From the IMG/VR virus record IMGVR_UViG_2711768057_000005: 24,533 bases of DNA. One strand, given 5' to 3'. This DNA is from a virus (taxonomy: Duplodnaviria; Heunggongvirae; Uroviricota; Caudoviricetes). The position numbers and the translations under genes are program-made. The notes under the pieces were generated by a model, which saw only the letters and a list, made by a program, of their open reading frames with translations, searched no databases and was not told the DNA's origin. Below, piece after piece: positions 3,019-22,894 of this stretch. Within the stretch, counting starts at the first letter, position 1. Each line of letters starts with the position of its first letter.

Positions 3019-3600
3019 TTACCCTATAGGTGCTACTGGCCATTCAATATCCGGTGCAGTTGTTGTATTAACACGGTTCAGCAACACCCGATACTTCTTC
3101 CAGGCTTCCAGCAACGAGATTTCTTCCTCCGTTGCAATTTCCAGATCTGCAGCATCCTGAAGCGGCGCAATATGCTCACTGGCTACCTGCATCAGGTTGT
3201 TTTTTGTTTCTTCCGCCTCCCGGATCCGGAACAGTTTTTCTGCTTCCGTATCCTTCACCCAGGCTGTGCCGTTCCACTTCTGATATTCCCCTTCCGGCGA
3301 TAACCAGGTGACATTTTCCGGTAACGAGCCAAGTTCAGAAATAAATAACGCGTCGCCGGAAGCCACGTCATAGACGGTTTTTCCCCGATGATCTTCAACG
3401 AGATGCCACGATGCCTCATCACTGTTGAAAACAGCCACAAAGCCAGCCGGAATATCTGGCGGTGCAATATCGGTACTGTTTGCTGGCAGACCTGTATGAG
3501 GCGGAATATATGCGTCACCTTCACCAATAAATTCATTAGTTCCGGCCAGCAGATTATAAATTTTTATGGTCCGTGGTTGTTCACTCATTCTGAATGCCAT
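3019..3600 (-). CDS. tfaQ: tail fibre assembly protein (Tfa)
   Basis: 193 aa beginning [24 protein letters not shown], the N-terminus I recall for TfaQ/TfaR/TfaE of E. coli cryptic prophages. Its start shares one base with the upstream fibre gene stop (TAATG). Confidence 0.8.
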
Positions 3601-5297
3601 TATGCAAGCCTCACAATATAGTTAAATGCGATGTTTTTGACGGTGTTTTCCGCGTTACCAGCAGCGTTAACGGTGATGGTGTGTCCATGTGAACCAATCG
3701 CAACGGAGTGCGTGTGTGCACCAATACCGACAGTATGTGCGTGTGCACCTGCAGATGCTGCTGTGCCGGACAGTGAGTGGCTATGGTTACCATCTGTACT
3801 GGTATTAGCTAACGCCCCCGTAGACATACCTACTGAGCCTTGTACACCCCAGGTATTTTGACCTGAGCTTGTATAACCATATTGATAAGTATCTTTAAAA
3901 ACACTGGGGTTAAATCGACGGCCATCTCTATGGCTGTGATTACCAGCTGCATTCGTGCTGCCACTTAAACTATGGGTATGCGCACCAGTGTTATTCGTGG
4001 ATTTAGTGCCGTAATCAAACGACGATGTGGTTTTCGTCCCCAAATCAGTACTGGATGCGCTGGCGCTGTGGGTATGCGATTTTATGCCGTCCTGTTCCTG
4101 AGACAATACGGCACGACCACTGGCGGGCTTGCCCTTAATCGTCCAGCCACGCATATCAGGGATCACGCCTGACGGATAAGCGGCTGCAAGTTTCGGGTAG
4201 GCAGATTTGTCAAAAGTCTGCCCCTGCATCAGGGCATAACCAGACGGAACGGTATCTGATGGCCACGGGATTGGTGCGCCGACTGGGTAGCTTTCTGGTG
4301 GAAGATTTTTCGAGGTATAAACTTCTGCCCAGTCTTCCTCAAAACCATAACCGTCTCTTGAAGAACGGTAGAACAGACCACCATTTCTGTAATGCGCCTT
4401 CATCTGCAAGGTCCGGCAACTTCCGACTCCGGTATAGAAGTTAACCAGAATATAGCTGTCGCCAGAGCGGGTGACATTATAAGCGCCTGATTCGGCATTC
4501 CAGGGAACGCCACCATCCGCATCGGCATATGTATCCGTTGCCCTTCTGGCAAAAGCAGCCACATGCGCGGCGGTTAAAGTAATATCTTTGGAACCATCAA
4601 ACTCAACACCAGAAACCCGTCTTGGCGTTTGCAGCTTTGTTGCTGTTAATGCATTACCGTTCAGACTTGCGGACAGTTTGGTTCCAATAACCAGTTCGCC
4701 GGTTGCGTTATCAATAGCAAACGGTCTTAATGTATTCCAGCCACCATAAACATCACCTTGATTGGTAAGCAGCAGGTAAGTTTTAGCGCCATCATTACGC
4801 CATAATGCCCCATACTCCCCACCTATCATTCGAATCTGATTACCACCACGCGCTACAATTTCGTCTGTGGCAAAAAGTTTTTTGCACGACAAGTTATCGT
4901 TAACGATTAATGAATGAGACTCATAAAAACCACGCCCACTCTTAAAATCAAGGATAACGTCCGCCGCGATACATTCAGTCGCCGGATTTGTTGCCCCAAA
5001 CTTATAGGTCGTATCATTAACAACGAGATCAGCACCAGGTGCGGATATTGACAGGCCATCTTCGATAAACGCAAAAACAGGGAAAGCAGCGCCATCAACA
5101 TAGAACACAGAGCGCAAATCATCGCCCTTATTACTCATCATTATTGAGTGGATGGCTCGTTCATTGTTTTGATATTGCCAGAACATTCCATAAGCATAAC
5201 GCCCCCTGTCAGTCCAGCCACCAGGCATAACAAATCCGTTATTCGAGCAACCCACCAGCGATATCAGCAGGAACAGGCAGATCACAGGTTTTTTCAC
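3600..5297 (-). CDS. side tail fibre C-terminal (receptor-binding) region with a lipoprotein-type N-terminus; probable fusion or truncation
   Basis: The C-terminal ~330 aa carry the lambda Stf / StfR-like tip ([21 protein letters not shown], repeated HTHS/HSHS histidine boxes, ending [11 protein letters not shown]). The N-terminus [18 protein letters not shown] looks like a signal peptide with lipobox; it starts at GTG 5297 and overlaps the Rz 3' end in the +1 frame. Confidence 0.6.
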
Positions 5298-5562
5298 GGC
5301 GGAGAATCTCCCGGTATTCGATTACGGTTTTTTCGGTGCTGGTGTCGATCAGGGAGTTAAGACTGTTGGCATGTTCTGCAACCTGATTGAATCGATTGAA
5401 GTTGAATGCCTGGGTGGCGATTACCTGCCCCAGCATAGAGTTGTCACTTCGCAGAACGTCGTTATCGCTCTGAAGATTACTGGCGTAAGAGCAACTCTTG
5501 ACGAGAGCGACCGAAAGGCCAGCAATAACGACAACGCCTATAAGATCCGGATTAATTTTCAT
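5239..5562 (-). CDS. Rz-like i-spanin
   Basis: Position immediately after the endolysin with an ATGA start/stop overlap at 5559-5562. N-terminal TM segment ([21 protein letters not shown]) then a hydrophilic periplasmic region. The track ORF has a 31-codon N-terminal extension that I trimmed. Confidence 0.65.
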
Positions 5563-6101
5563 TGCTCCAGCCCCCAGCACGCCAGTGCGCTTTCCTGATC
5601 GCGCCGCTCGACCTGCCCATAACAGCCATTCTTCTGCCCTTTTGTCAGGCGGCAATCACGCCCACCATCTTTTATCCACCAGCGAATCGCCTCGCATGCC
5701 CCCTTACGATCATCGGCATTCAGCCGCTTATAAAACGTCGACGGGAAACACTTACCGGGGCCAATGTTATAGGGACAAAATGACGCTATACCCGCTTTCT
5801 GTGGTTCGGTCAGTGGCACTTTAATATTGCGCTCCACCCATGCCAGCGCCTTATCCCGTTCAATGGCGTTAACCTGGTCGCATTTTTCCTTCGACAGTTT
5901 CATACCGGGAAAAACGGGTTTTCCATCCACCACCGTGGCACCCCGACAGATGGTCCAGATGCCGGAACCATCGCGGTATGCCGTTGTGTGGTTACCTTCT
6001 TTTTCATTCAGAAACTGGTCGAGAATATCAGGCGCAGGCGCACCGACGGCAATCAGTGCCAGAACGGCAGCCGACAGGCCGTATCTGATTTTTACGTTCA
6101 T
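5559..6101 (-). CDS. SAR endolysin, GH24 (T4/P21-type) lysozyme
   Basis: Catalytic E-x8-D-x5-T spacing in EGNHTTAYRDGSGIWT. Weakly hydrophobic Gly/Ala-rich N-terminus (LSAAVLALIAVGAPAP) typical of signal-anchor-release endolysins. Overall pattern resembles E. coli prophage RrrD/R21 lysozymes from memory. Confidence 0.85.
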   Translation of the reverse strand: MNVKIRYGLSAAVLALIAVGAPAPDILDQFLNEKEGNHTTAYRDGSGIWTICRGATVVDGKPVFPGMKLSKEKCDQVNAIERDKALAWVERNIKVPLTEPQKAGIASFCPYNIGPGKCFPSTFYKRLNADDRKGACEAIRWWIKDGGRDCRLTKGQKNGCYGQVERRDQESALACWGLEQ

Positions 6102-8294: not shown

Positions 8295-8768
8295 ACAGCG
8301 AATCAGATCAAATAAAACGCACATTTGTTAACATTTACACAAAGTCTGCGTGGGATATTCTGAAAGAATATCCATAATGTGGAGAGAATCTATTGAAGTG
8401 CATGGTGCCGGGGGCCTCCCGGTGAATTCAGTACCAGCACCTGAATCCACGATTATCCCATATACCTACTCGCTGATTGCCCCTCCGCACAGGGGGATTC
8501 ACCATGCCAGTTTCTTTTAACAAACTCCCCGCAAACCAGAGAACAGTCAACCGCCTGAATTGTGAAGTATTTAAAAATTTCTCCCGCTAACTGATACCCG
8601 GCTAACAGTCTGGCGTTTTCTTTTTCAGCAACGGGAAAGCAACAACTACCACACCCGCCACCAGCACACCGTCAGCCAGCACTGACATTATCCGGCTGCT
8701 GCAATGCCATTCACAAAAACAGTAAGCAATCACTTTTTACCGTAACAGGTGATAATCCAGATATGTAT

Positions 8769-9232: not shown

Positions 9233-9309
9233 TGGCGCGCTGTACTGGATTCGAACCAGTGACCGATTGCTTAGAAGGCAATTGCTCTGTCCGGCTGAGC
9301 TAACAACGC
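9233..9309 (-). tRNA. tRNA-Arg (anticodon UCU)
   Basis: Hand-folded cloverleaf: acceptor GCGTTGT/ACAGCGC, D-stem GCTC/GAGC, anticodon stem ATTGC/GCAAT, loop CTTCTAA, T-arm ACTGG-TTCGAAT-CCAGT, discriminator G, CCA. Same position as argN/argO in lambdoid phages. Confidence 0.85.
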
Positions 9310-9343
9310 TGAATACCGATAATGGACCGCCATCGGGGACCCG

Positions 9344-9355
9344 CCCCCCCCCCCC
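9344..9355. repeat. C12 homopolymer (G12 on the transcribed strand) in the inter-tRNA spacer
   Basis: Twelve consecutive C between the two tRNA genes. Confidence 0.9.
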
Positions 9356-9416
9356 GCACCAACAACCCTGTTATCGTGTCGTCTGCTCTTCCTGATAAGC
9401 TCATGGCGGTTTGTGA

Positions 9417-9492
9417 TGGTGGCCCTTGCTGGATTTGAACCAGCGACCTGGCGATTATGAGTCGCTCGCTCTCACCACTGAGCTAAAGGACC
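9417..9492 (-). tRNA. tRNA with CAU anticodon, ileX/ileZ-like (tRNA-Ile2, lysidine-type) rather than Met
   Basis: Hand-folded: acceptor GGTCCTT/AAGGGCC, D-stem GCTC/GAGC, loop CTCATAA, T-arm GCTGG-TTCAAAT-CCAGC, discriminator A, CCA. The 3' half is nearly identical to my memory of E. coli ileX. Confidence 0.8.
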
Positions 9493-12628: not shown

Positions 12629-12784
12629 TTACTCCTCAGGTTCGTAAGCTGTGAAGACAGCGACCTCCGTCTGGCCGGTTCGGAGTCGTACCTCGCAGAG
12701 GTCTTTCCTCGTTACCAGTGCCGTCACTATGACGGTTAAACAGATGACGATCAGGGCGATTAACATCGCCTTTTGCTGCTTCAT
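12629..12784 (-). CDS. hokD: Hok-family type I toxin (HokD/RelF-like)
   Basis: 51-aa product MKQQKAMLIALIVICLTVIVTALVTRKDLCEVRLRTGQTEVAVFTAYEPEE matches my memory of HokD almost residue for residue. SD AAGGAG upstream. The track ORF has a 19-codon in-frame extension. No relBE genes are upstream here. Confidence 0.85.
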   Translation of the reverse strand: MKQQKAMLIALIVICLTVIVTALVTRKDLCEVRLRTGQTEVAVFTAYEPEE

Positions 12785-13401
12785 AGCCTGCTTCTCCTTG
12801 CCTTTCGGCACGTAAGAGGCTAACCTACATGTGTCTAGCATGAAATTGGCCTCAGATTAATGTTAAGCGTCTTGCAGGACGCGTAATGTTAACTGGGGCT
12901 TTTCTCTATCTGCCTTTGGTGTTCATGCCTGAGGCAGATAGCCTCAAGCACCCGCAGCAATTCTACTTAACTCACGTCACCTCGCCAATATAAAATCAAT
13001 CAGAAAGGCGATCCGTAAGAACAACAGCAAGACAATAAATTGCCATTACAGCCGCAATAGCTAGCGCACATTTGAGAACCAGCACGACAACCTCCTGTAT
13101 TGGACGTACACCAGTCCTGATAAATATGAGGCTGTCTCATCATTGATTCAATATAACTATTGGGTATAGTTTCTGTGATTTTGTTCTGTAGAAATGGAAC
13201 ACAACAACCAGTCACCACCAGCACTTCTTTAAATACGCCAAGTCCGACGCAAGCTAACCTTCTAGTCCGCTTTGAGCGATCTGTAGACATTGCTAGCAGC
13301 CTTCTGTGTGAATTCTCAGGGAGCAGGTCGGCATAGCATCACGTTGAGGCTCTTACCCTACTTGTTGACACCAACCCTAACTCCACAGACTGATTCATAA
13401 A

Positions 13402-14403
13402 TTAGTAATCTGCGTATTTCGCACTTTTCAGAAATGCTTTCATATTTTCATTAGGTCGCTCAATTTCGAAGTTACTTCCATATAACTCTTGTAATTTTGG
13501 CCATAACTTACTTAATAACCCTCTCCTGCGATAAAATGGATGTATCCAAACGGTAGATAGGTACGGAGAATTTGCATTTGAATTGTTTATTGTGACCAGC
13601 CCAACTAAACATTGTCGATAACCACTATTATCCATTGATTGTATTTCTTCGACGAATGGATACGCGATTACATCAGTCCAACCATGATCGGTTGTATCCC
13701 ATTGCATTCCGTCATGACATTCCTTCGACTGATAGCGGCGTAAAGCTACACACGCGAGCTTTTGCCAATCTGGAGAATTAATTGTGATCTCTTCATCGTA
13801 TGACGCGCCTATTGGAGCGGGTATTGGTCTGATTAATCCAGCATGGCATTCATCATAGAACTTCATGTTTCCCTCAGAAACGTTGTGTACGTTGGGTTGC
13901 TCCATGTGTGCGCCATTCAAAAATAGCTCTGATAGTAGTGTATCTACACTGTAATCTTTATTGATTATTGTCGGCTTAGAGTTTTTCTTATTAAGGCCGC
14001 GAGTAACGATTTTTTGATCAATGTTAACAACATGGAATAATCCGTCGGGGAGACTAGCGAACCACGATGGGGCATCGGACCAGAATAGCATGCCTTTTGT
14101 ACTTCTTAAGAGTTTAATTAAGTTAATACAAGCTTCTTCACTAGTCTTGCCGTTGATGCGAAGTATGTTAGGACTAAAGTAATATTCATCCATATCAGGG
14201 AATGCAGCTTCGCAAAACTCCTGTACATAATTTAGCACCTGGATTCTACAGAGATCATCATAGCTGGTAATAACTAAGGGGATATCTTCATTACTATTAT
14301 GATTATCAATAATGCAATCTATAGCGAGACTTACTGCTTTGCGTATCACTTCAGTTGAATCTAACGACTCTAAAAATTTTGTCTTTCGTGTGCGAATATC
14401 CAT
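13402..14403 (-). CDS. hypothetical protein with C-terminal GNAT-acetyltransferase-like motif (gene 2 of low-GC insert)
   Basis: 333 aa, ATG 14403 is 15 nt after the upstream gene stop. C-terminal VWIHPFYRRRGLLSKLWPKL resembles GNAT motif A (h-x-P-x-Y-R-x-x-G-h-[GA]). N-terminal two thirds not recognised. Hand-sampled 60-nt stretches give roughly 37% GC. Confidence 0.55.
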   Translation of the reverse strand: MDIRTRKTKFLESLDSTEVIRKAVSLAIDCIIDNHNSNEDIPLVITSYDDLCRIQVLNYVQEFCEAAFPDMDEYYFSPNILRINGKTSEEACINLIKLLRSTKGMLFWSDAPSWFASLPDGLFHVVNIDQKIVTRGLNKKNSKPTIINKDYSVDTLLSELFLNGAHMEQPNVHNVSEGNMKFYDECHAGLIRPIPAPIGASYDEEITINSPDWQKLACVALRRYQSKECHDGMQWDTTDHGWTDVIAYPFVEEIQSMDNSGYRQCLVGLVTINNSNANSPYLSTVWIHPFYRRRGLLSKLWPKLQELYGSNFEIERPNENMKAFLKSAKYADY

Positions 14404-14418
14404 GTATGACCTGCGCTA

Positions 14419-15441
14419 TTAAAATTCATGAATGAACGGTTTGTCATCTGGTTGCAAAATGGTGGTTTTATTCGTTGCTACATTTAAACTGTTGTAGAGC
14501 ATAATTGCCAGGTTCGATGCATTTTCAATCAGCGTTTCAAGATCCTGGTCTGTAATCACTACGAGGTTCCCTTCTTTATCCTTTCCACCACGATGCACTA
14601 AGTGATTTCGATTGAGGGTTGCCAATTCAATAGCTTCTATCGGACAGTCTTTTTGTACTTTTATATCGAATGTAGCTTCATAGCGGTCGATTACCTTTTT
14701 AGTGCTATGCCAGCTTGCACTGATCAAGTGTTCCTTGATTGACCTGATTAGCTCTCCCCTAATTTTCTCGATGGGTTCACCCTTGAAAGGCAACGCAGCA
14801 ATATCTTTGCTTACTTTAAATTCAGTCTTACCTTTTTCTATACAATTGGCTATGTAGACATCATCTTTCTCTATAGAATTAATGAATAGCTCAACATAAA
14901 GCGTTTCCAAAGCTGTAATAACATTCGTGTAGAGCAAACTAAGCAAGTGGTTTTTTTGCTGTTGTTCAGTTTTATCTTTTGCAAGTTTTTTTATTTTATC
15001 GATATTATCAATGAATTTTAAATACGGATTACCGGAAGACGTTACAGCGTCGTAGATATCATCATCGTACCAATCATCTATATTATTTGAGTTTCCAGAC
15101 CAGTCAAAACATTGTGTTTGTAATTCATCTACTAATTCCTCAATATACTCAGATTTAACATATTGACCGAAGATGGATTGTAGTTCTTCGCTCGCATCAT
15201 ACGGCCCGCCATATATGTAAGCATAGCCACCTTCTCTACTTTCATACGGACAAGCATTTGCCGGATCTTCAAAGTTTTCAAAGAACCAGTTTTTCATTAC
15301 TTCGAGTTGATCTTTTTTGCTTATGTATTTTAAAGATTTTAGTGGAACTTTCTTTCCATTAACCTCGAAAACAATTTTCACGATGTAACGCTCCCTTGTA
15401 TCAATTGCGCAACTATTATACCACAGCGAAATACAGGGCAT
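14419..15441 (-). CDS. hypothetical protein with HEPN-like R-x4-H motif (gene 1 of low-GC insert)
   Basis: Start chosen at ATG 15441 because of a strong SD AAGGAGG 6 nt upstream (track ORF extends to 15531). 340 aa. Near the C-terminus LNRNHLVHRGG fits the HEPN R-x(4-6)-H pattern. Hand-sampled stretches give roughly 27-37% GC against about 58% in a sample of the neighbouring replication gene. Confidence 0.55.
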   Translation of the reverse strand: MPCISLWYNSCAIDTRERYIVKIVFEVNGKKVPLKSLKYISKKDQLEVMKNWFFENFEDPANACPYESREGGYAYIYGGPYDASEELQSIFGQYVKSEYIEELVDELQTQCFDWSGNSNNIDDWYDDDIYDAVTSSGNPYLKFIDNIDKIKKLAKDKTEQQQKNHLLSLLYTNVITALETLYVELFINSIEKDDVYIANCIEKGKTEFKVSKDIAALPFKGEPIEKIRGELIRSIKEHLISASWHSTKKVIDRYEATFDIKVQKDCPIEAIELATLNRNHLVHRGGKDKEGNLVVITDQDLETLIENASNLAIMLYNSLNVATNKTTILQPDDKPFIHEF

Positions 15442-15572
15442 AACCTGCCTCCTTAAACTAACATACCATGAGCCAGCAATGTCCGCTATTGGCACAAAGC
15501 GGACAACCACGCTAGCTCTACCCTGTGCCACAAAATGTCAATTTGCATCTGAACTAATGCACTTTAATCTCG

Positions 15573-15995
15573 TCACTTCAATAAATACCGAACATCACCC
15601 TGATAAAACGACAATATGCGCTGCATAACTTCACTCTTCCGGCACTCGCGACAGATTATGTTCTGACGCCTGTCGTAGCGACGTATTTCTCCGTCAGGTA
15701 ATGACCAGATAAGGTCCGGATCAACCGCAGATGGTTTCTTCAGCTTTGCCCTTGAGAGCTTTTTACGGGCATTTTGCCAGTCCTTACGCGCCTGTTCAGA
15801 CGGGAATAACCCGTAACCAGAGTTGCATACATCGCCGCTGGCAACCAGCTCTCTTGCGAGAACGCTCATCAGATATCTTGTCGCACCTGTCTTGACTTCC
15901 AGTTGCCGTAACGTCTCACGCCCACTCTGGCGTACGAGTTCAACAACCTGTCCTTTAATTTTTTCCCGCTCTTCTTGTGTAAAAACTTTTGCCAC
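15573..15995 (-). CDS. hypothetical protein (140 aa)
   Basis: GTG 15995 with SD AGGAGG 5 nt upstream. Basic, with a C-x-x-C pair (CRECRK). Follows the replication gene in the same operon. Confidence 0.5.
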   Translation of the reverse strand: MAKVFTQEEREKIKGQVVELVRQSGRETLRQLEVKTGATRYLMSVLARELVASGDVCNSGYGLFPSEQARKDWQNARKKLSRAKLKKPSAVDPDLIWSLPDGEIRRYDRRQNIICRECRKSEVMQRILSFYQGDVRYLLK

Positions 15996-16035: not shown

Positions 16036-17112
16036 TTACCCCCTGAAGCCCGGCGGAATTTCGTTATCCGGTTCAGAAATATGATTCACACAACGCTGGT
16101 TGTTCGTGCCGCTTACCGGGAGCAACCAGGGGTTCTCAAAATTCCGGTCCGGTCCAAAAAACGTCGTCGCTCGCTGAACAAATTCCGTTCCCGTTTTCCC
16201 GGTAGCCGCCAAGTATCTTGCGTAACGCCTCACGCCATCCAGCATGGCCTCTGGTGGCACCCCCTCGCGTAATCTGGCCTTCCAGGCACTGAAAGCGGAT
16301 TTCTTCGGGTTTGCCCCAGCACGCAACGGGTACTCCCGCCAGACCTGTTCGAACACATCCGGATAATCCACTCGTCCCACAGACTGCCCGGTGTTTTCCG
16401 GGACTACCCGATCGGCTTCCCGCTGAATGGCGGAATCGGCTTCGGGCTGCTGCAGTTGGTGTGATTGCTCCGGCCTTGCGGTCATCACCTGCTGCACAGC
16501 GCCCGAATCGGCTTTCAGCGCATACGCTGAATCGGCTTCCGGTGTCGTGCCTGCTGGCTGACCAAGATTGACGGTCTGAACATCCCCTGCCTGGTTCGTG
16601 GCGTTTTTTACGCCATGGACCATAGTGTTTTGATCTTCTTGATCTGTATCTTTATCTGTATCTTTATCTGTCGTGACTCGTCGTGACATGTGCGTGACAT
16701 TTCGTGACGCGCCGTGACAATCGCCATTTTGTTCCCGCTTTCTTTCCCTCTCTCGCTGCGCCCTCTTGCGCTCTGCAGGAGATTTTGCGGTTTGCGAAAT
16801 ATTGCCGTTGTCCTCTTTAAGCACCTGGCGTTTTTCCCATCCAGTGATTAAATCACCATCAAGTACCCGCCCCTGCATCGTCTGCAAAATTGAATCAATT
16901 ACCTCTTCTGTCACGTCGAGCGCACTTGCCAAATCTTCTGTCGTGACATCAATGTGACCTCGCGTGACATTTCGTGACGCGCTCACCAGGAGGTGGATAT
17001 ACACTGCCATCACTGTTGCAATTGGCTGCCCTGACACCCTGGCAATTGTTCGCCACTTAGGGTCATTTGGCATGTCATGCCATAATCTGAGCCAGGCGTT
17101 AGCCATACTCAC
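16036..17112 (-). CDS. putative phage replication initiator (lambda O-like organisation with ori inside the gene)
   Basis: 358 aa in the position after cro/YdaT. Contains two arrays of (C/T)GTGAC direct repeats at helical spacing, plus acidic and basic low-complexity segments. Family not confirmed. Confidence 0.5.
   Translation of the reverse strand: MSMANAWLRLWHDMPNDPKWRTIARVSGQPIATVMAVYIHLLVSASRNVTRGHIDVTTEDLASALDVTEEVIDSILQTMQGRVLDGDLITGWEKRQVLKEDNGNISQTAKSPAERKRAQRERERKREQNGDCHGASRNVTHMSRRVTTDKDTDKDTDQEDQNTMVHGVKNATNQAGDVQTVNLGQPAGTTPEADSAYALKADSGAVQQVMTARPEQSHQLQQPEADSAIQREADRVVPENTGQSVGRVDYPDVFEQVWREYPLRAGANPKKSAFSAWKARLREGVPPEAMLDGVRRYARYLAATGKTGTEFVQRATTFFGPDRNFENPWLLPVSGTNNQRCVNHISEPDNEIPPGFRG
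16671..16718. repeat. iteron array A: five CGTGAC repeats at 10-11 bp spacing
   Basis: CGTGAC begins at 16672, 16682, 16693, 16703 and 16713. Preceded by 2.5 copies of the 12-mer ATCTGTATCTTT (16642-16671) and two GATC sites. Confidence 0.6.
16941..16978. repeat. iteron array B: four (C/T)GTGAC repeats at 10-11 bp spacing
   Basis: CGTGAC at 16942, TGTGAC at 16953, CGTGAC at 16963 and 16973. Same core as array A, about 260 bp away, inside the same gene. Confidence 0.6.
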
Positions 17113-19725: not shown

Positions 19726-19783
19726 TTTCTGGTGACGTTTGGCGGTATCAGTTTTACTCCGTGACTGCTCTGCCGCCCTTTTT
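19726..19783 (+). ncRNA. dicF: DicF small RNA (ftsZ-targeting Hfq sRNA) with intrinsic terminator
   Basis: TTTCTGGTGACGTTTGGCGGTATCAGTTTTACTCCGTGACTGCTCTGCCGCCCTTTTT matches the DicF sequence as I remember it, including the GGCGG/CCGCC terminator stem and U-tail. Lies between ydfC and dicB, preceded by about 340 nt of structured non-coding leader. Confidence 0.8.
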
Positions 19784-20422: not shown

Positions 20423-22894
20423 ATGAGTAAAGTCTTTATTTGCGCCGCTATTCCTGACGAACTGGCAACAAGGGAAGAAGGCGCTGTGGCTGTAGCCACA
20501 GCCATTGAAGCTGGCGACGAACGCCGTGCTCGAGCAAAATTTCACTGGCAGTTCCTGGAACATTATCCGGCTGCTCAGGACTGCGCTTATAAATTTATTG
20601 TCTGCGAGGATAAACCTGGCATACCCCGCCCTGCCCTCGATTCATGGGATGCTGAATATATGCAGGAAAACCGCTGGGATGAGGAGTCTGCTTCTTTTGT
20701 CCCGGTTGAGACTGAATCCGATCCGATGAACGTCACTTTTGACAAGCTGGCCCCTGAAGTACAGAACGCTGTCATGGTTAAGTTCGACACATGTGAAAAC
20801 ATCACCGTTGATATGGTTATTAGCGCACAGGAATTGTTGCAGGAAGACATGGCAACATTCGACGGACATATCGTTGAAGCGTTGATGAAAATGCCAGAAG
20901 TTAACGCCATGTATCCGGAGCTTAAGTTGCACGCCATTGGGTGGGTTAAGCATAAATGTATTCCTGGTGCTAAATGGCCCGAAATTCAGGCAGAGATGCG
21001 CATCTGGAAAAAACGTCGCGAAGGTGAACGCAAGGAAACCGGAAAATACACGTCTGTTGTTGATCTCGCCCGCGCCAGAACCAATCAACAGTACACTGAA
21101 AATTCAACAGGAAAAATCAGCCCGGTCATTGCTGCCATTCATCGCGAATACAAGCAGACATGGAAAACACTGGATGACGAACTGGCCTACGCTCTCTGGC
21201 CTGGTGATGTGGATGCCGGAAACATTGACGGCAGCATCCATCGCTGGGCAAAAAAAGAAGTTATCGACAACGACCGCGAAGACTGGAAGCGTATCTCGGC
21301 ATCAATGCGCAAACAGCCTGATGCCCTTCGCTACGACCGCCAGACTATTTTTGGCCTTGTCCGTGAGCGTCCGATCGACATTCACAAAGATCCCATAGCA
21401 CTGAACAAATATATCTGCGAATACCTGACGACAAAGGGCGTGTTTGAGAATGAAGAAACAGACCTGGGCACTGTTGATGTTCTCCAGTCATCAGAAACAC
21501 AAACTGATGCAGTGGAAACTGAGGTATCTGATATCCCAAAAAATGAAACCGCGCCGGAAGCTGAACCATCTGTAGAGCGTGAGGGGCCGTTCTATTTCCT
21601 CTTCGCAGATAAGGACGGAGAAAAATACGGTCGCGCAAACAAACTTTCTGGTCTGGATAAGGCACTGGCTGCTGGCGCCACTGAAATCACAAAAGAAGAA
21701 TATTTTGCCCGAAAAAATGGCACATACACGGGCTTACCGCAAAATGTAGATACCGCTGAAGATTCAGAACAACCAGAGCCGATAAAAGTTACCGCTGACG
21801 AAGTAAACAAAATTATGCAGGCAGCCAATATCAGCCAGCCTGACGCCGATGAACTGCTTGCAGTATCACGTGGTGAATTTGTTGAAGGGATTAGCGACCC
21901 GAATGATCCGAAATGGATTAAGGGGATCCAGACCCGCGATTCTGTGAACCAGAACCAGCAAGAAACGGAACAGAACGACCAGAAAGCGGAACAAAACAGC
22001 CCAAATACGCAACAAAACGAGCCAGAAACGAAACAACCTGAACCAGTAGTGCAACAGGAACCGGAAAAGATCTGCACCGCCTGCGGTCAGAGCGGTGGCG
22101 GCAACTGCCCTGATTGTGGTGCGGTGATGGGTGACGCAACATACCAGGAAATATTCGATGGAGAGAATCAGCCTGAAGTTCAGGAAAATGATCCGGAGGA
22201 AATGGAAGGCACTGCGCATCAGCACAAGGAGAACACTGGCGGCAATCAGCATCATGCCAGCGATAGTGAAACTGGCGAGGCGTCAGATCCCTTAATTAAG
22301 GCAAACGGTCATCATAATCTCACATCCACCAGCAGAGCGGGGATTCATCTGATGATCGACCTTGAAACCATGGGAAAAAATCCCGATGCCCCGATTATCT
22401 CAATAGGTGCAATATTTTTCGATCCGCAAACCGGAGATATGGGACCGGAATTTAGTAAGACTATCGATCTGGAAACTGCTGGCGGAGTCATTGATCGGGA
22501 CACCATTAAATGGTGGCTTAAACAATCACGCGAAGCGCAATCTGCCATTATGACCGATGAAATCCCGTTAGATGATGCACTGTTACAATTGCGGGAATTT
22601 ATCGACGAAAACTCCGGTGAATTTTTTGTTCATGTCTGGGGAAATGGAGCCAACTTCGACAACACGATTTTGCGCCGTTCATACGAACGGCAGGAGATCC
22701 CCTGCCCGTGGCGTTACTACAACGATCGCGATGTACGCACAATCGTTGAGCTGGGGAAAGCCATAGACTTCGATGCCAGAACGGCTATTCCATTCGAAGG
22801 TGAGCGCCATAATGCACTTGATGACGCCCGTTACCAGGCAAAATACGTTTCAGTTATCTGGCAAAAACTGATCCCGAGTCAGGCTGATTCTTAA
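20423..22894 (+). CDS. ydfE: large YdfE-position protein with zinc ribbon, Q/E-rich linker and C-terminal DEDDh 3'-5' exonuclease domain
   Basis: 823 aa. C-terminal DnaQ-like motifs: Exo I MIDLETMG, Exo II GNGANFDNTIL, Exo III HNALDDARYQAKY. Also CTACGQSGGGNCPDCG. Occupies the recombination-module position before xis/int. Confidence 0.7.
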   Translation: MSKVFICAAIPDELATREEGAVAVATAIEAGDERRARAKFHWQFLEHYPAAQDCAYKFIVCEDKPGIPRPALDSWDAEYMQENRWDEESASFVPVETESDPMNVTFDKLAPEVQNAVMVKFDTCENITVDMVISAQELLQEDMATFDGHIVEALMKMPEVNAMYPELKLHAIGWVKHKCIPGAKWPEIQAEMRIWKKRREGERKETGKYTSVVDLARARTNQQYTENSTGKISPVIAAIHREYKQTWKTLDDELAYALWPGDVDAGNIDGSIHRWAKKEVIDNDREDWKRISASMRKQPDALRYDRQTIFGLVRERPIDIHKDPIALNKYICEYLTTKGVFENEETDLGTVDVLQSSETQTDAVETEVSDIPKNETAPEAEPSVEREGPFYFLFADKDGEKYGRANKLSGLDKALAAGATEITKEEYFARKNGTYTGLPQNVDTAEDSEQPEPIKVTADEVNKIMQAANISQPDADELLAVSRGEFVEGISDPNDPKWIKGIQTRDSVNQNQQETEQNDQKAEQNSPNTQQNEPETKQPEPVVQQEPEKICTACGQSGGGNCPDCGAVMGDATYQEIFDGENQPEVQENDPEEMEGTAHQHKENTGGNQHHASDSETGEASDPLIKANGHHNLTSTSRAGIHLMIDLETMGKNPDAPIISIGAIFFDPQTGDMGPEFSKTIDLETAGGVIDRDTIKWWLKQSREAQSAIMTDEIPLDDALLQLREFIDENSGEFFVHVWGNGANFDNTILRRSYERQEIPCPWRYYNDRDVRTIVELGKAIDFDARTAIPFEGERHNALDDARYQAKYVSVIWQKLIPSQADS

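Follow-up and report, generated by a model that had tools for sequence, protein, structure and literature searches.

In bacteriophage lambda, the replication origin consists of iterons and an A+T-rich tract situated in the middle of gene O (PMC7466680). Similarly, gp38 of SPP1 binds direct repeats inside its own gene 38 (oriL), which adjoin an A+T-rich unwinding element, and it binds two separate repeat regions, the other being oriR, an origin about 13 kb away with an A+T-rich region of its own (PMC6316719). A comparable arrangement is found in the replication initiator gene of a prophage contained in IMG/VR record IMGVR_UViG_2711768057_000005 (Caudoviricetes), a stretch of 24,533 nucleotides referred to here as the window. 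Within this gene, which is of the 'phage replisome organizer' type, two arrays of a short iteron, termed A and B in gene order, are embedded in the coding sequence, and array B runs into an A+T-rich tract.

On the available evidence, there is a probability of roughly 0.75 that a lambdoid (Rac/Qin-like) prophage has its replication origin here, inside its own initiator gene, and array B together with the A+T-rich tract is concluded to be the putative origin core. A preliminary description of the window, made from its letters and open reading frames, had proposed a lambda-like origin candidate with two arrays inside the initiator gene. This proposal is supported by the operon position of the gene, the constraint acting on the DNA, the conserved layout, the covariation of the arrays, and their inheritance as part of a mosaic unit. 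A literature search found no paper on this initiator family or its origin, which appears never to have been mapped before.

The initiator gene and its operon

The initiator gene lies downstream of P22-Cro-like and cII/YdaT-like genes and opposite a cI-type S24 repressor gene, and thus holds the position of the first replication gene of a lambdoid cI/cro/cII-like early-right operon. Its product aligns with phrog_3729, 'replication initiation protein', along its entire length (E 5.5e-258), the alignment starting at residue 3. Matches to the 'replisome organizer' families of PHROGs are weak (phrog_4880, E 4e-6; phrog_5968, E 2e-4), no Pfam family is reached at E < 0.01, and PADLOC returned a weak match only. 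The name 'phage replisome organizer' is given to the homologues by NCBI and to the window protein in the record of phage Tritos, while the label 'DNA replication protein O' in some phage records is annotation only.

The preliminary description had the gene begin at a GTG at 17112, giving 358 amino acids (aa). An ATG at 17106 is most likely the start codon, with a protein of 356 aa: it is preceded by the Shine-Dalgarno sequence GAGGTG, and every homologue begins with MAN. The GTG would add two residues that are absent from all homologues, and is the less likely start.

E. coli ATCC 11775 has a 100% identical copy of the gene. Among isolated phages, Tritos, Evi and vB_EcoS-689R5 carry it with 98-99.5% identity, and it is also present in phage 204576. 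In 1647 of 5426 complete E. coli genomes, the gene is found over at least 80% of its length. The replication module is thus among the commonest in E. coli prophages (about 30% of complete genomes), with relatives in Pseudomonas, Bordetella, Aeromonas and further hosts.

Two iteron arrays under constraint at the DNA level

On the plus strand, array B consists of CGTGAC motifs starting at 16672, 16682, 16693, 16703 and 16713 (spacing 10/11/10/10), exactly the five copies at 10-11 bp intervals that had been reported, and Tandem Repeats Finder also calls a 10-bp array at 16670-16719. For array A, four further copies had been listed; the array is present, with three exact copies (plus-strand starts at 16942, 16963 and 16973) and one variant, TGTGAC, at 16953-16958. 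The arrays had been placed about 260 bp apart; their starts are separated by 270 bp, and 223 bp lie between them. Including a single inverted copy, 9 of the 13 exact iteron copies of the 24.5-kb window fall within 307 bp (16672-16978). An isolated CGTGAC occurs at 19760, inside DicF.

The nine copies that make up the two arrays are spread over all three codon phases (0, 1 and 2), and their translation is VT in four, SR in three, CH in one and GH in one, so the earlier statement that each repeat encodes a Val-Thr pair holds for four copies only. The accompanying idea, that constraints on DNA and protein are coupled at these sites, stands in spirit, though not through a Val-Thr pair at every repeat. 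When synonymous codons were shuffled, with the protein and the codon usage of the gene kept, GTCACG occurred 1.6 +/- 1.0 times per gene (maximum 6) versus eight times in the observed sequence, and none of 5000 permutations reached eight. In addition, among 80 near-identical copies of the gene, most substitutions in the arrays lie in the spacers and not in the cores.

Scans of genomes and viral contigs yielded 53 non-redundant relatives from gamma- and betaproteobacteria, with a locus GC content of 34-69% and hosts that include Enterobacteriaceae, Pseudomonas, Bordetella, Aquitalea, Stenotrophomonas, Pseudothauera and others. Across these relatives, the codon phases of the cores are nearly uniform. 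In 21 diverse loci with the GTCACG type of iteron, the array A codons V47 (GTC), T48 (ACG), G50 (GGT), H51 (CAC), V54 (GTC) and T55 (ACG) are each identical in 21/21. By comparison, R49, a spacer codon, has an unconstrained third position, and the synonymous sites of other conserved residues are saturated. Mean codon entropy is 0.29 inside array A versus 1.43 outside it (p = 5e-5). The inverted copy also recurs, at gene nucleotide 192 in many loci of this type, and the codon of V65 is GTG in 18/18. Two E. coli relatives whose N-terminal halves are 84-88% identical to that of the window (L001 and L002) keep all array B cores, with altered spacers and an altered local reading frame.

An explanation at the protein level would make the repeats a by-product of a needed peptide motif (SRNVT / CHxxSR), with no function as DNA. 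Consistent with it, ASRNVT occurs at both arrays, residues S44, N46, V47, T48, R49, G50 and H51 are invariant in distant relatives, and the peptides of the two arrays resemble each other in every type of iteron. However, the copies stand in all three codon phases and encode different peptides, and most of them vanish under synonymous-codon permutation. A peptide motif also does not account for synonymous sites that are fixed in the cores (GTC 21/21, ACG 21/21) and saturated elsewhere, for a last iteron that is read as S-H-D rather than V-T-T in one relative (L012), or for the location of array B in a predicted disordered linker. A peptide by-product is therefore extremely unlikely. The use of all three codon phases, the excess over permutation, the frozen synonymous codons, and the invariance of the cores despite a change of frame together establish, at the level of sequence comparison, that the constraint on the repeats acts on the DNA, and that the repeat is a DNA feature and not a peptide repeat.

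Conservation and covariation of the layout

The comparison of iterons among related prophages that had been proposed earlier reveals a conserved two-array layout and an iteron sequence that differs by class. In nearly all 53 relatives, array A is found at about gene nucleotides 129-160 and array B at about 350-450, and 231 of the 259 spacings within arrays are 10 or 11 bp. Three classes of iteron can be distinguished, GTCACG, (C)GAACGC and GTAACGC, and at any one locus the two arrays are of the same class. A single host group, the Enterobacteriaceae, harbours different classes. In three relatives (L001, L002 and L005), array A contains two extra iterons as a 21-bp insertion.

The A+T-rich tract is the third constant element. 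In all classes and nearly all relatives, including loci of 60-69% GC, a tract of GATA[AC]A repeats (GATAAA/GATACA) begins 2-3 nucleotides past the last iteron of array B. When the tract is defined by position and loci with a GC content of 55% or more are taken, its Asp codons are GAT 75 : GAC 1 versus 185 : 265 in the rest of the genes, and its Lys codons are AAA 45 : AAG 10 versus 126 : 204.

The arrays are also inherited together with the N-terminal part of the protein. The similarity of L001 and L002 to the window ends inside the A+T-rich tract; past it, their C-terminal half is unlike that of the window, and a lambda-P gene comes next. This breakpoint indicates that the N-terminal domain and both arrays travel as one mosaic unit. 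The C-terminal half is exchanged independently of the N-terminal half, as that of the window is also joined to unrelated N-terminal halves with linker repeats of their own, and DnaC-like genes come after it in those cases. Furthermore, the gene after the initiator varies among the relatives, being lambda-P-like, IstB/DnaC-like, DnaB, ParB-like or none. This variability points to the initiator as the origin-recognition member of the replication module and argues against another constant partner of the repeats.

These observations bear on whether the repeats might be bound by a different protein, such as a host factor, the DUF977 protein or a cII-like protein, for transcription control, partition or packaging. 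The DUF977 protein, encoded next to the initiator, has a weak match to a PHROG 'DNA binding protein', which would fit such a role. On the other hand, the iteron classes differ among phages of one host group, which argues against a host factor, and the downstream genes vary (P-like, DnaC-like, DnaB, ParB-like or none) while the N-terminal domain and arrays are constant. The inheritance of that domain and the arrays as one unit likewise speaks against a different binding protein, and an A+T-rich tract with fixed synonymous sites is needed by an origin but not by an operator or a packaging site. Binding by another protein is thus very unlikely, and the initiator itself is preferred as the ligand of the iterons.

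Initiators with unrelated N-terminal domains have linker repeats at the same position. AAGGGGCTT is present three times in E. coli ERL06-2497 (L204) and E. coli 2009C_3996 (L205), and AGCCCCTT twice in phage 75/02 Stx (L203). In all three, the linker repeats are followed by a purine-rich (GAACAG)n tract and then by the shared C-terminal module, which suggests that an origin layout within the linker is general for this set of mosaic initiators.

The A+T-rich tract and its surroundings

In the window, array B leads straight into GATAAAGATACAGATAAAGATACAGATCAAGAAGATC (gene strand), which is the 12-bp tandem repeat. This repeat, noted earlier as 2.5 copies preceding the first array, is real, and Tandem Repeats Finder assigns it 2.9 copies of the unit TCTTTATCTGTA at 16637-16671. 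Its copy number varies among near-identical prophages, with two in 76 copies and three in 3. The GC content of the tract is 0.33-0.35, compared with 0.54 over the gene, and duplex stability in 40-bp windows reaches its minimum for the gene at 16627-16668. The positions of the tract and of the other features are collected in Table 1.

Table 1. Features of the initiator gene and its candidate origin (window coordinates)
Feature	Position	Strand	Remarks
Replication initiator gene ('phage replisome organizer' type)	16036..17106	-	356 aa from ATG 17106
N-terminal folded domain (aa 1-98), coding region	16813..17106	-	helices, helix-turn-helix, short beta wing
Array A: GTCACG, GTCACG, GTCACA, GTCACG	16942..16978	-	spacing 10/10/11 bp; coded at aa 45-57
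Single inverted iteron copy	16910..16915	+	26 bp downstream (gene sense) of array A; coded as D64-V65-T66
Array B: five GTCACG iterons (gene strand)	16672..16718	-	coded at aa 132-147
A+T-rich tract: GATAAAGATACA repeated (gene sense), the 12-bp tandem repeat, then AGATCAAGAAGATC	16628..16671	-	candidate DNA unwinding element
Two GATC (Dam) sites	16632-16635 and 16641-16644		distal end of A+T-rich tract
Imperfect palindrome (possible hairpin)	16592..16622		15 bp beyond A+T-rich tract, at start of C-terminal mosaic module
C-terminal helical domain (aa 249-320) and tail (aa 333-356), coding region	16039..16362	-	AlphaFold2 domain limits

The two GATC sites reported near the first array are indeed present. 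Both are missing in the closest divergent relatives, L001 and L002, although several other relatives have AGATCT in their tract. Across the window, GATC is found 73 times versus about 96 expected and is not enriched. As the sites are not conserved and there is no enrichment, a role for Dam methylation at this locus is not supported, and the significance of the sites is doubtful.

The imperfect palindrome beyond the tract has a predicted DNA folding energy of -8.7 kcal/mol (z = -3.2 versus shuffled sequences). One compensatory change is seen in phage 75/02 Stx, where GGCGT/ACGCC becomes GGCGA/TCGCC, and the inner stem is lost in E. coli strains ERL06-2497 and 2009C_3996. In position it is reminiscent of the palindrome next to the A+T-rich region of lambda, and it may form part of the origin. 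Other elements were sought with negative results. No DnaA box was found in or near the initiator gene, inspection by eye of the tract gave no convincing IHF site, and a promoter and terminator scan yielded nothing above shuffled expectation, its sole promoter-like match (16694-16721; score 9/12) consisting of iteron sequence.

Between the palindrome and the C-terminal domain, a further repeat, AATCGGCTTC, occurs four times on the plus strand at 16411-16542 with a spacing of 24/72/24 bp. All copies are in a single codon phase, encoding EADS, KADS, EADS and EADR, and they lie in the region of the disordered linker as part of a 36-nucleotide duplication; the homologue of 75/02 Stx has two. The pattern resembles a protein-level or duplication repeat more than it does an array of binding sites.

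Predicted domain architecture of the initiator protein

AlphaFold2 divides the protein into four parts, namely the N-terminal domain (aa 1-98), a basic helix (aa 110-126), a disordered region (aa 127-248) and a helical C-terminal domain (aa 249-320). The N-terminal domain is predicted with a pLDDT mostly above 90 for aa 11-90 and is 60-75% identical in relatives from Pseudomonas, Bordetella, Aquitalea and Stenotrophomonas. In Foldseek searches of the PDB with two AlphaFold2 models, the best matches were mostly winged-helix DNA-binding proteins, none of them significant (E > 0.1), and a profile search of PDB sequences gave weak DnaT matches only (E 0.25). The assignment of a winged helix to this domain is thus a tentative one, drawn from the secondary structure of the model and these non-significant matches, and the domain is presumed to be the origin-binding part of the protein.

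The two arrays occupy different contexts in the protein. Array A is coded in a loop (aa 44-55) between the helix of aa 29-45 and the helix-turn-helix, a loop that accepts insertions carrying iterons. Array B and the A+T-rich tract are coded at aa 132-160, where pLDDT is below 50, in the linker between the folded domains of aa 1-98 and 249-320.

The C-terminal part matches the PHROG families 'DnaD-like helicase loader' (phrog_1701, E 7.5e-63) and 'primosomal protein' (phrog_9327, E 1.1e-15). Its tail of aa 333-356 (16039-16110) matches the C-terminus of host DnaT (NCBIfam PRK02854, 19.2 bits, E 7e-4, the cut-off being 201 bits); the similarity to DnaT is confined to these last 24 residues and does not extend over the full length. 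The motif EPDxxIPPGFRG also terminates relatives with unrelated middle parts, and this short tail peptide may dock onto a host replication protein. The C-terminal domain and tail are the presumed helicase-recruitment part of the initiator.

Proposed mechanism and the role of array A

What follows on binding by the initiator, melting of the tract, the way in which the helicase is recruited and the function of array A can only be inferred. The initiator would be translated from the early-right transcript, and its N-terminal winged-helix-like domain would bind the 6-7-bp GTCACG iterons; with a spacing of 10-11 bp, neighbouring sites would face the same side of the helix. By oligomerising on the five array B iterons, the initiator would distort the DNA and melt the adjoining A+T-rich GATAAAGATACA tract (16628-16671), after which the C-terminal domain and DnaT-like tail would recruit the host replicative helicase. 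As the window has no loader gene, host loading factors would probably be used. Array A, with the inverted copy, would either join the same nucleoprotein complex by means of a DNA loop or tune initiation through titration, handcuffing or a transcription roadblock.

Array A shares the DNA-level constraint of array B and covaries with it, and the same protein therefore very likely binds both; on this basis array A can be read as an auxiliary initiator-binding cluster. A related possibility is that both arrays are initiator-binding sites, with array A a control element that lies outside the origin and acts by autoregulation through a block to transcription, by copy-number titration or handcuffing, or by exclusion of incoming phages of the same initiator type. 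Precedents for copy-number control are incA of P1 and incC of F. Moreover, the A+T-rich tract follows array B only, the distance between the arrays is not in helical phase, and three low-GC relatives seem to do without array A while retaining the tract. Lambda replication is also reported to be inhibited by ori-lambda iterons carried on plasmids (PMC3349717), an effect that would suit such a control element. Nevertheless, almost all lineages retain array A despite what it costs the protein, whose loop is made to encode it and has been expanded by iteron insertions, and this fits either role. A purely regulatory array A outside the origin is possible, if on the doubtful side. The balance tips slightly towards an accessory or control role for array A, given that the arrays stand in no fixed helical phase and that there is no second A+T-rich tract.

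A more specific suggestion is that the loop of aa 44-55 (SRNVTRGHIDVT), which is encoded by array A, sets iteron specificity, with the site and its reader residing in the same nucleotides. If this were true, a change of iteron would alter the site and the protein that reads it together. Within aa 1-98, the residues that separate the classes are mostly in this loop or at V65, in the inverted copy, and otherwise at positions 31 and 96 only; identity outside the loop is 0.64-0.67 between iteron classes versus 0.65-0.71 within them, values that are treated as equal. Against this suggestion, the loop differences are forced in any case by the change in the DNA, and the basic helix of aa 107-120 is also class-specific. 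The determinant of specificity could instead be that helix, or the part of the linker that array B encodes. With more sequences, the class-specific residues in helix 107-120 weakened the argument by elimination for the loop as sole determinant, and specificity set by the loop is a speculative idea that is probably incorrect.

Several points weigh against the region being an origin of the kind proposed. The 53 relatives share descent, and the counts given for them are numbers of sequences and not of independent events. Three low-GC relatives (L031, L033 and L038) are without an obvious array A, with the tract kept. The distance between arrays varies (about 249-270 bp from last iteron to last iteron) with no fixed helical phase, which weakens a model of rigid looping; a fixed phase between the arrays is ruled out by these distances. 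The absence of a Pfam match and of significant fold matches leaves DNA binding by the N-terminal domain itself putative, and in this family origin activity, unwinding and binding are predictions. Finally, the prophage looks defective, and its origin may no longer be used here.

The surrounding prophage

The window represents a Rac/Qin-like prophage with genes for an integrase, a RecE-like exonuclease, DicF, hok/sok, RusA, Q and lysis functions. Almost immediately after the endolysin gene (5559-6101) come the genes for the tail fibre (3600-5297) and for fibre assembly (3019-3600), and no terminase, head or tail genes lie in between. Because the tail-fibre genes directly follow the lysis genes, the prophage is probably defective, like Rac. 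Next to the initiator is a DUF977 gene (15573-15995), with a PHROG match to 'Ren-like exclusion protein'. The window lacks a P, DnaC or DnaB gene downstream of the initiator, a place where relatives that share either its N-terminal or its C-terminal domain have lambda-P-like, IstB/DnaC-like or DnaB genes.

This context raises the possibility that the origin is an intact but idle relic, which no longer fires in a prophage that lacks head, tail and terminase genes. The direct succession of lysis and tail-fibre genes and the missing helicase loader after the initiator would be in keeping with disuse. In contrast, neither the gene nor its arrays are disrupted, and they match those of Tritos, Evi and vB_EcoS-689R5 with 98-99.5% identity; the array substitutions among the 80 near-identical copies fall mostly in spacers. 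Defective prophages such as Rac, moreover, keep a usable origin, oriJ. Loss of firing in this prophage is accordingly considered unlikely.

Several other elements of the prophage were recorded. Between DUF977 and hok/sok, at 13402-15531, are two adjacent genes of 333 and 370 aa whose only matches are to PHROG families without known function (phrog_16994 and phrog_17908), with no Pfam, NCBIfam or PADLOC match; they may be accessory (moron) or defence cargo. Rfam and ARAGORN matches at 19727-19778, 12779-12953, 9233-9492, 8346-8536 and 3059-3257 comprise DicF sRNA, sok RNA, tRNA-Met(CAT), tRNA-Arg(TCT), STnc100 and 'IS009'. Both tRNA genes are downstream of Q, and the 'IS009' RNA match is inside the fibre-assembly gene. 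A 21-bp tandem repeat, GAAACAAAACGAGCCAGAAAC (4.3 copies, 74% matches), is found at 21946-22036 inside the RecE-like exonuclease gene.

Knowledge of the origin and of the three iteron classes would be of use for origin annotation and for predicting replication incompatibility or exclusion between prophages, and the compact cassette of origin plus initiator (about 1.1 kb) could serve in vectors. The locus also offers a natural case of a coding sequence with a second, DNA-level code, in which cores are frozen at synonymous sites across 34-69% GC.

Comparison with known replication origins

One of the closest resemblances is to ori-lambda of lambda and the Stx phages, in which the origin lies in the initiator gene between the codons for DNA binding and those for helicase recruitment (PMC7466680). 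In both systems, direct repeats (four to six iterons in ori-lambda, five here) are followed by an A+T-rich tract, and a pR-type early transcript passes through the known or candidate origin. In both, too, the N-terminal half and the iterons constitute an exchangeable specificity unit that is joined to varied C-terminal halves and loader genes. Lambda iterons are 19-bp elements with internal dyad symmetry, to which initiator dimers bind, whereas the iteron cores of the window are 6-7 bp, asymmetric and repeated with a 10-11-bp period. Unlike ori-lambda, the window has a second array 223 bp upstream, within the region coding for the DNA-binding domain, and a P-type loader gene is not directly downstream, although relatives with the same N-terminal domain carry P. 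The initiator also has no detectable sequence relationship to lambda O, as it lacks a match to Phage_rep_O or to any Pfam family at E < 0.01. The two-array design offers a further distinction from lambda, since array A can be destroyed by synonymous changes alone, separating its role as DNA from its role in the protein.

SPP1 oriL resembles the window in having repeats within the initiator gene beside an A+T-rich element, and in having two repeat regions, a likeness that for the window is one of DNA anatomy alone. In contrast to SPP1, the second array of the window is 0.27 kb away and has no A+T-rich tract, and the hosts are Gram-negative. Regarding the gp38 type (Phage_rep_org_N), the initiator has a weak similarity to 'replisome organizer' families (phrog_4880, E 4e-6) and no Pfam match.

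Two clusters of direct repeats near a rep gene are also known from P1 (incC/incA), F (ori2/incC) and P4 (ori/crr), in which one cluster adjoins the melting region and the other is a control element or a required cis element. The window would share with these iteron plasmids and P4 the use of short direct repeats in two clusters for one initiator. Homology to Rep proteins of the RepA or pi type was not detected, with no Foldseek match in the PDB at E < 0.1 and a best plasmid initiator, 4pta, at E 1.8. The arrays of P1, F and P4 are intergenic and their Rep proteins are of other families, whereas both arrays of the window are coding sequence of the initiator. In summary, an origin inside an initiator gene is a known arrangement, and what this locus adds is an uncharacterised but common initiator family with a conserved, covarying two-array layout.

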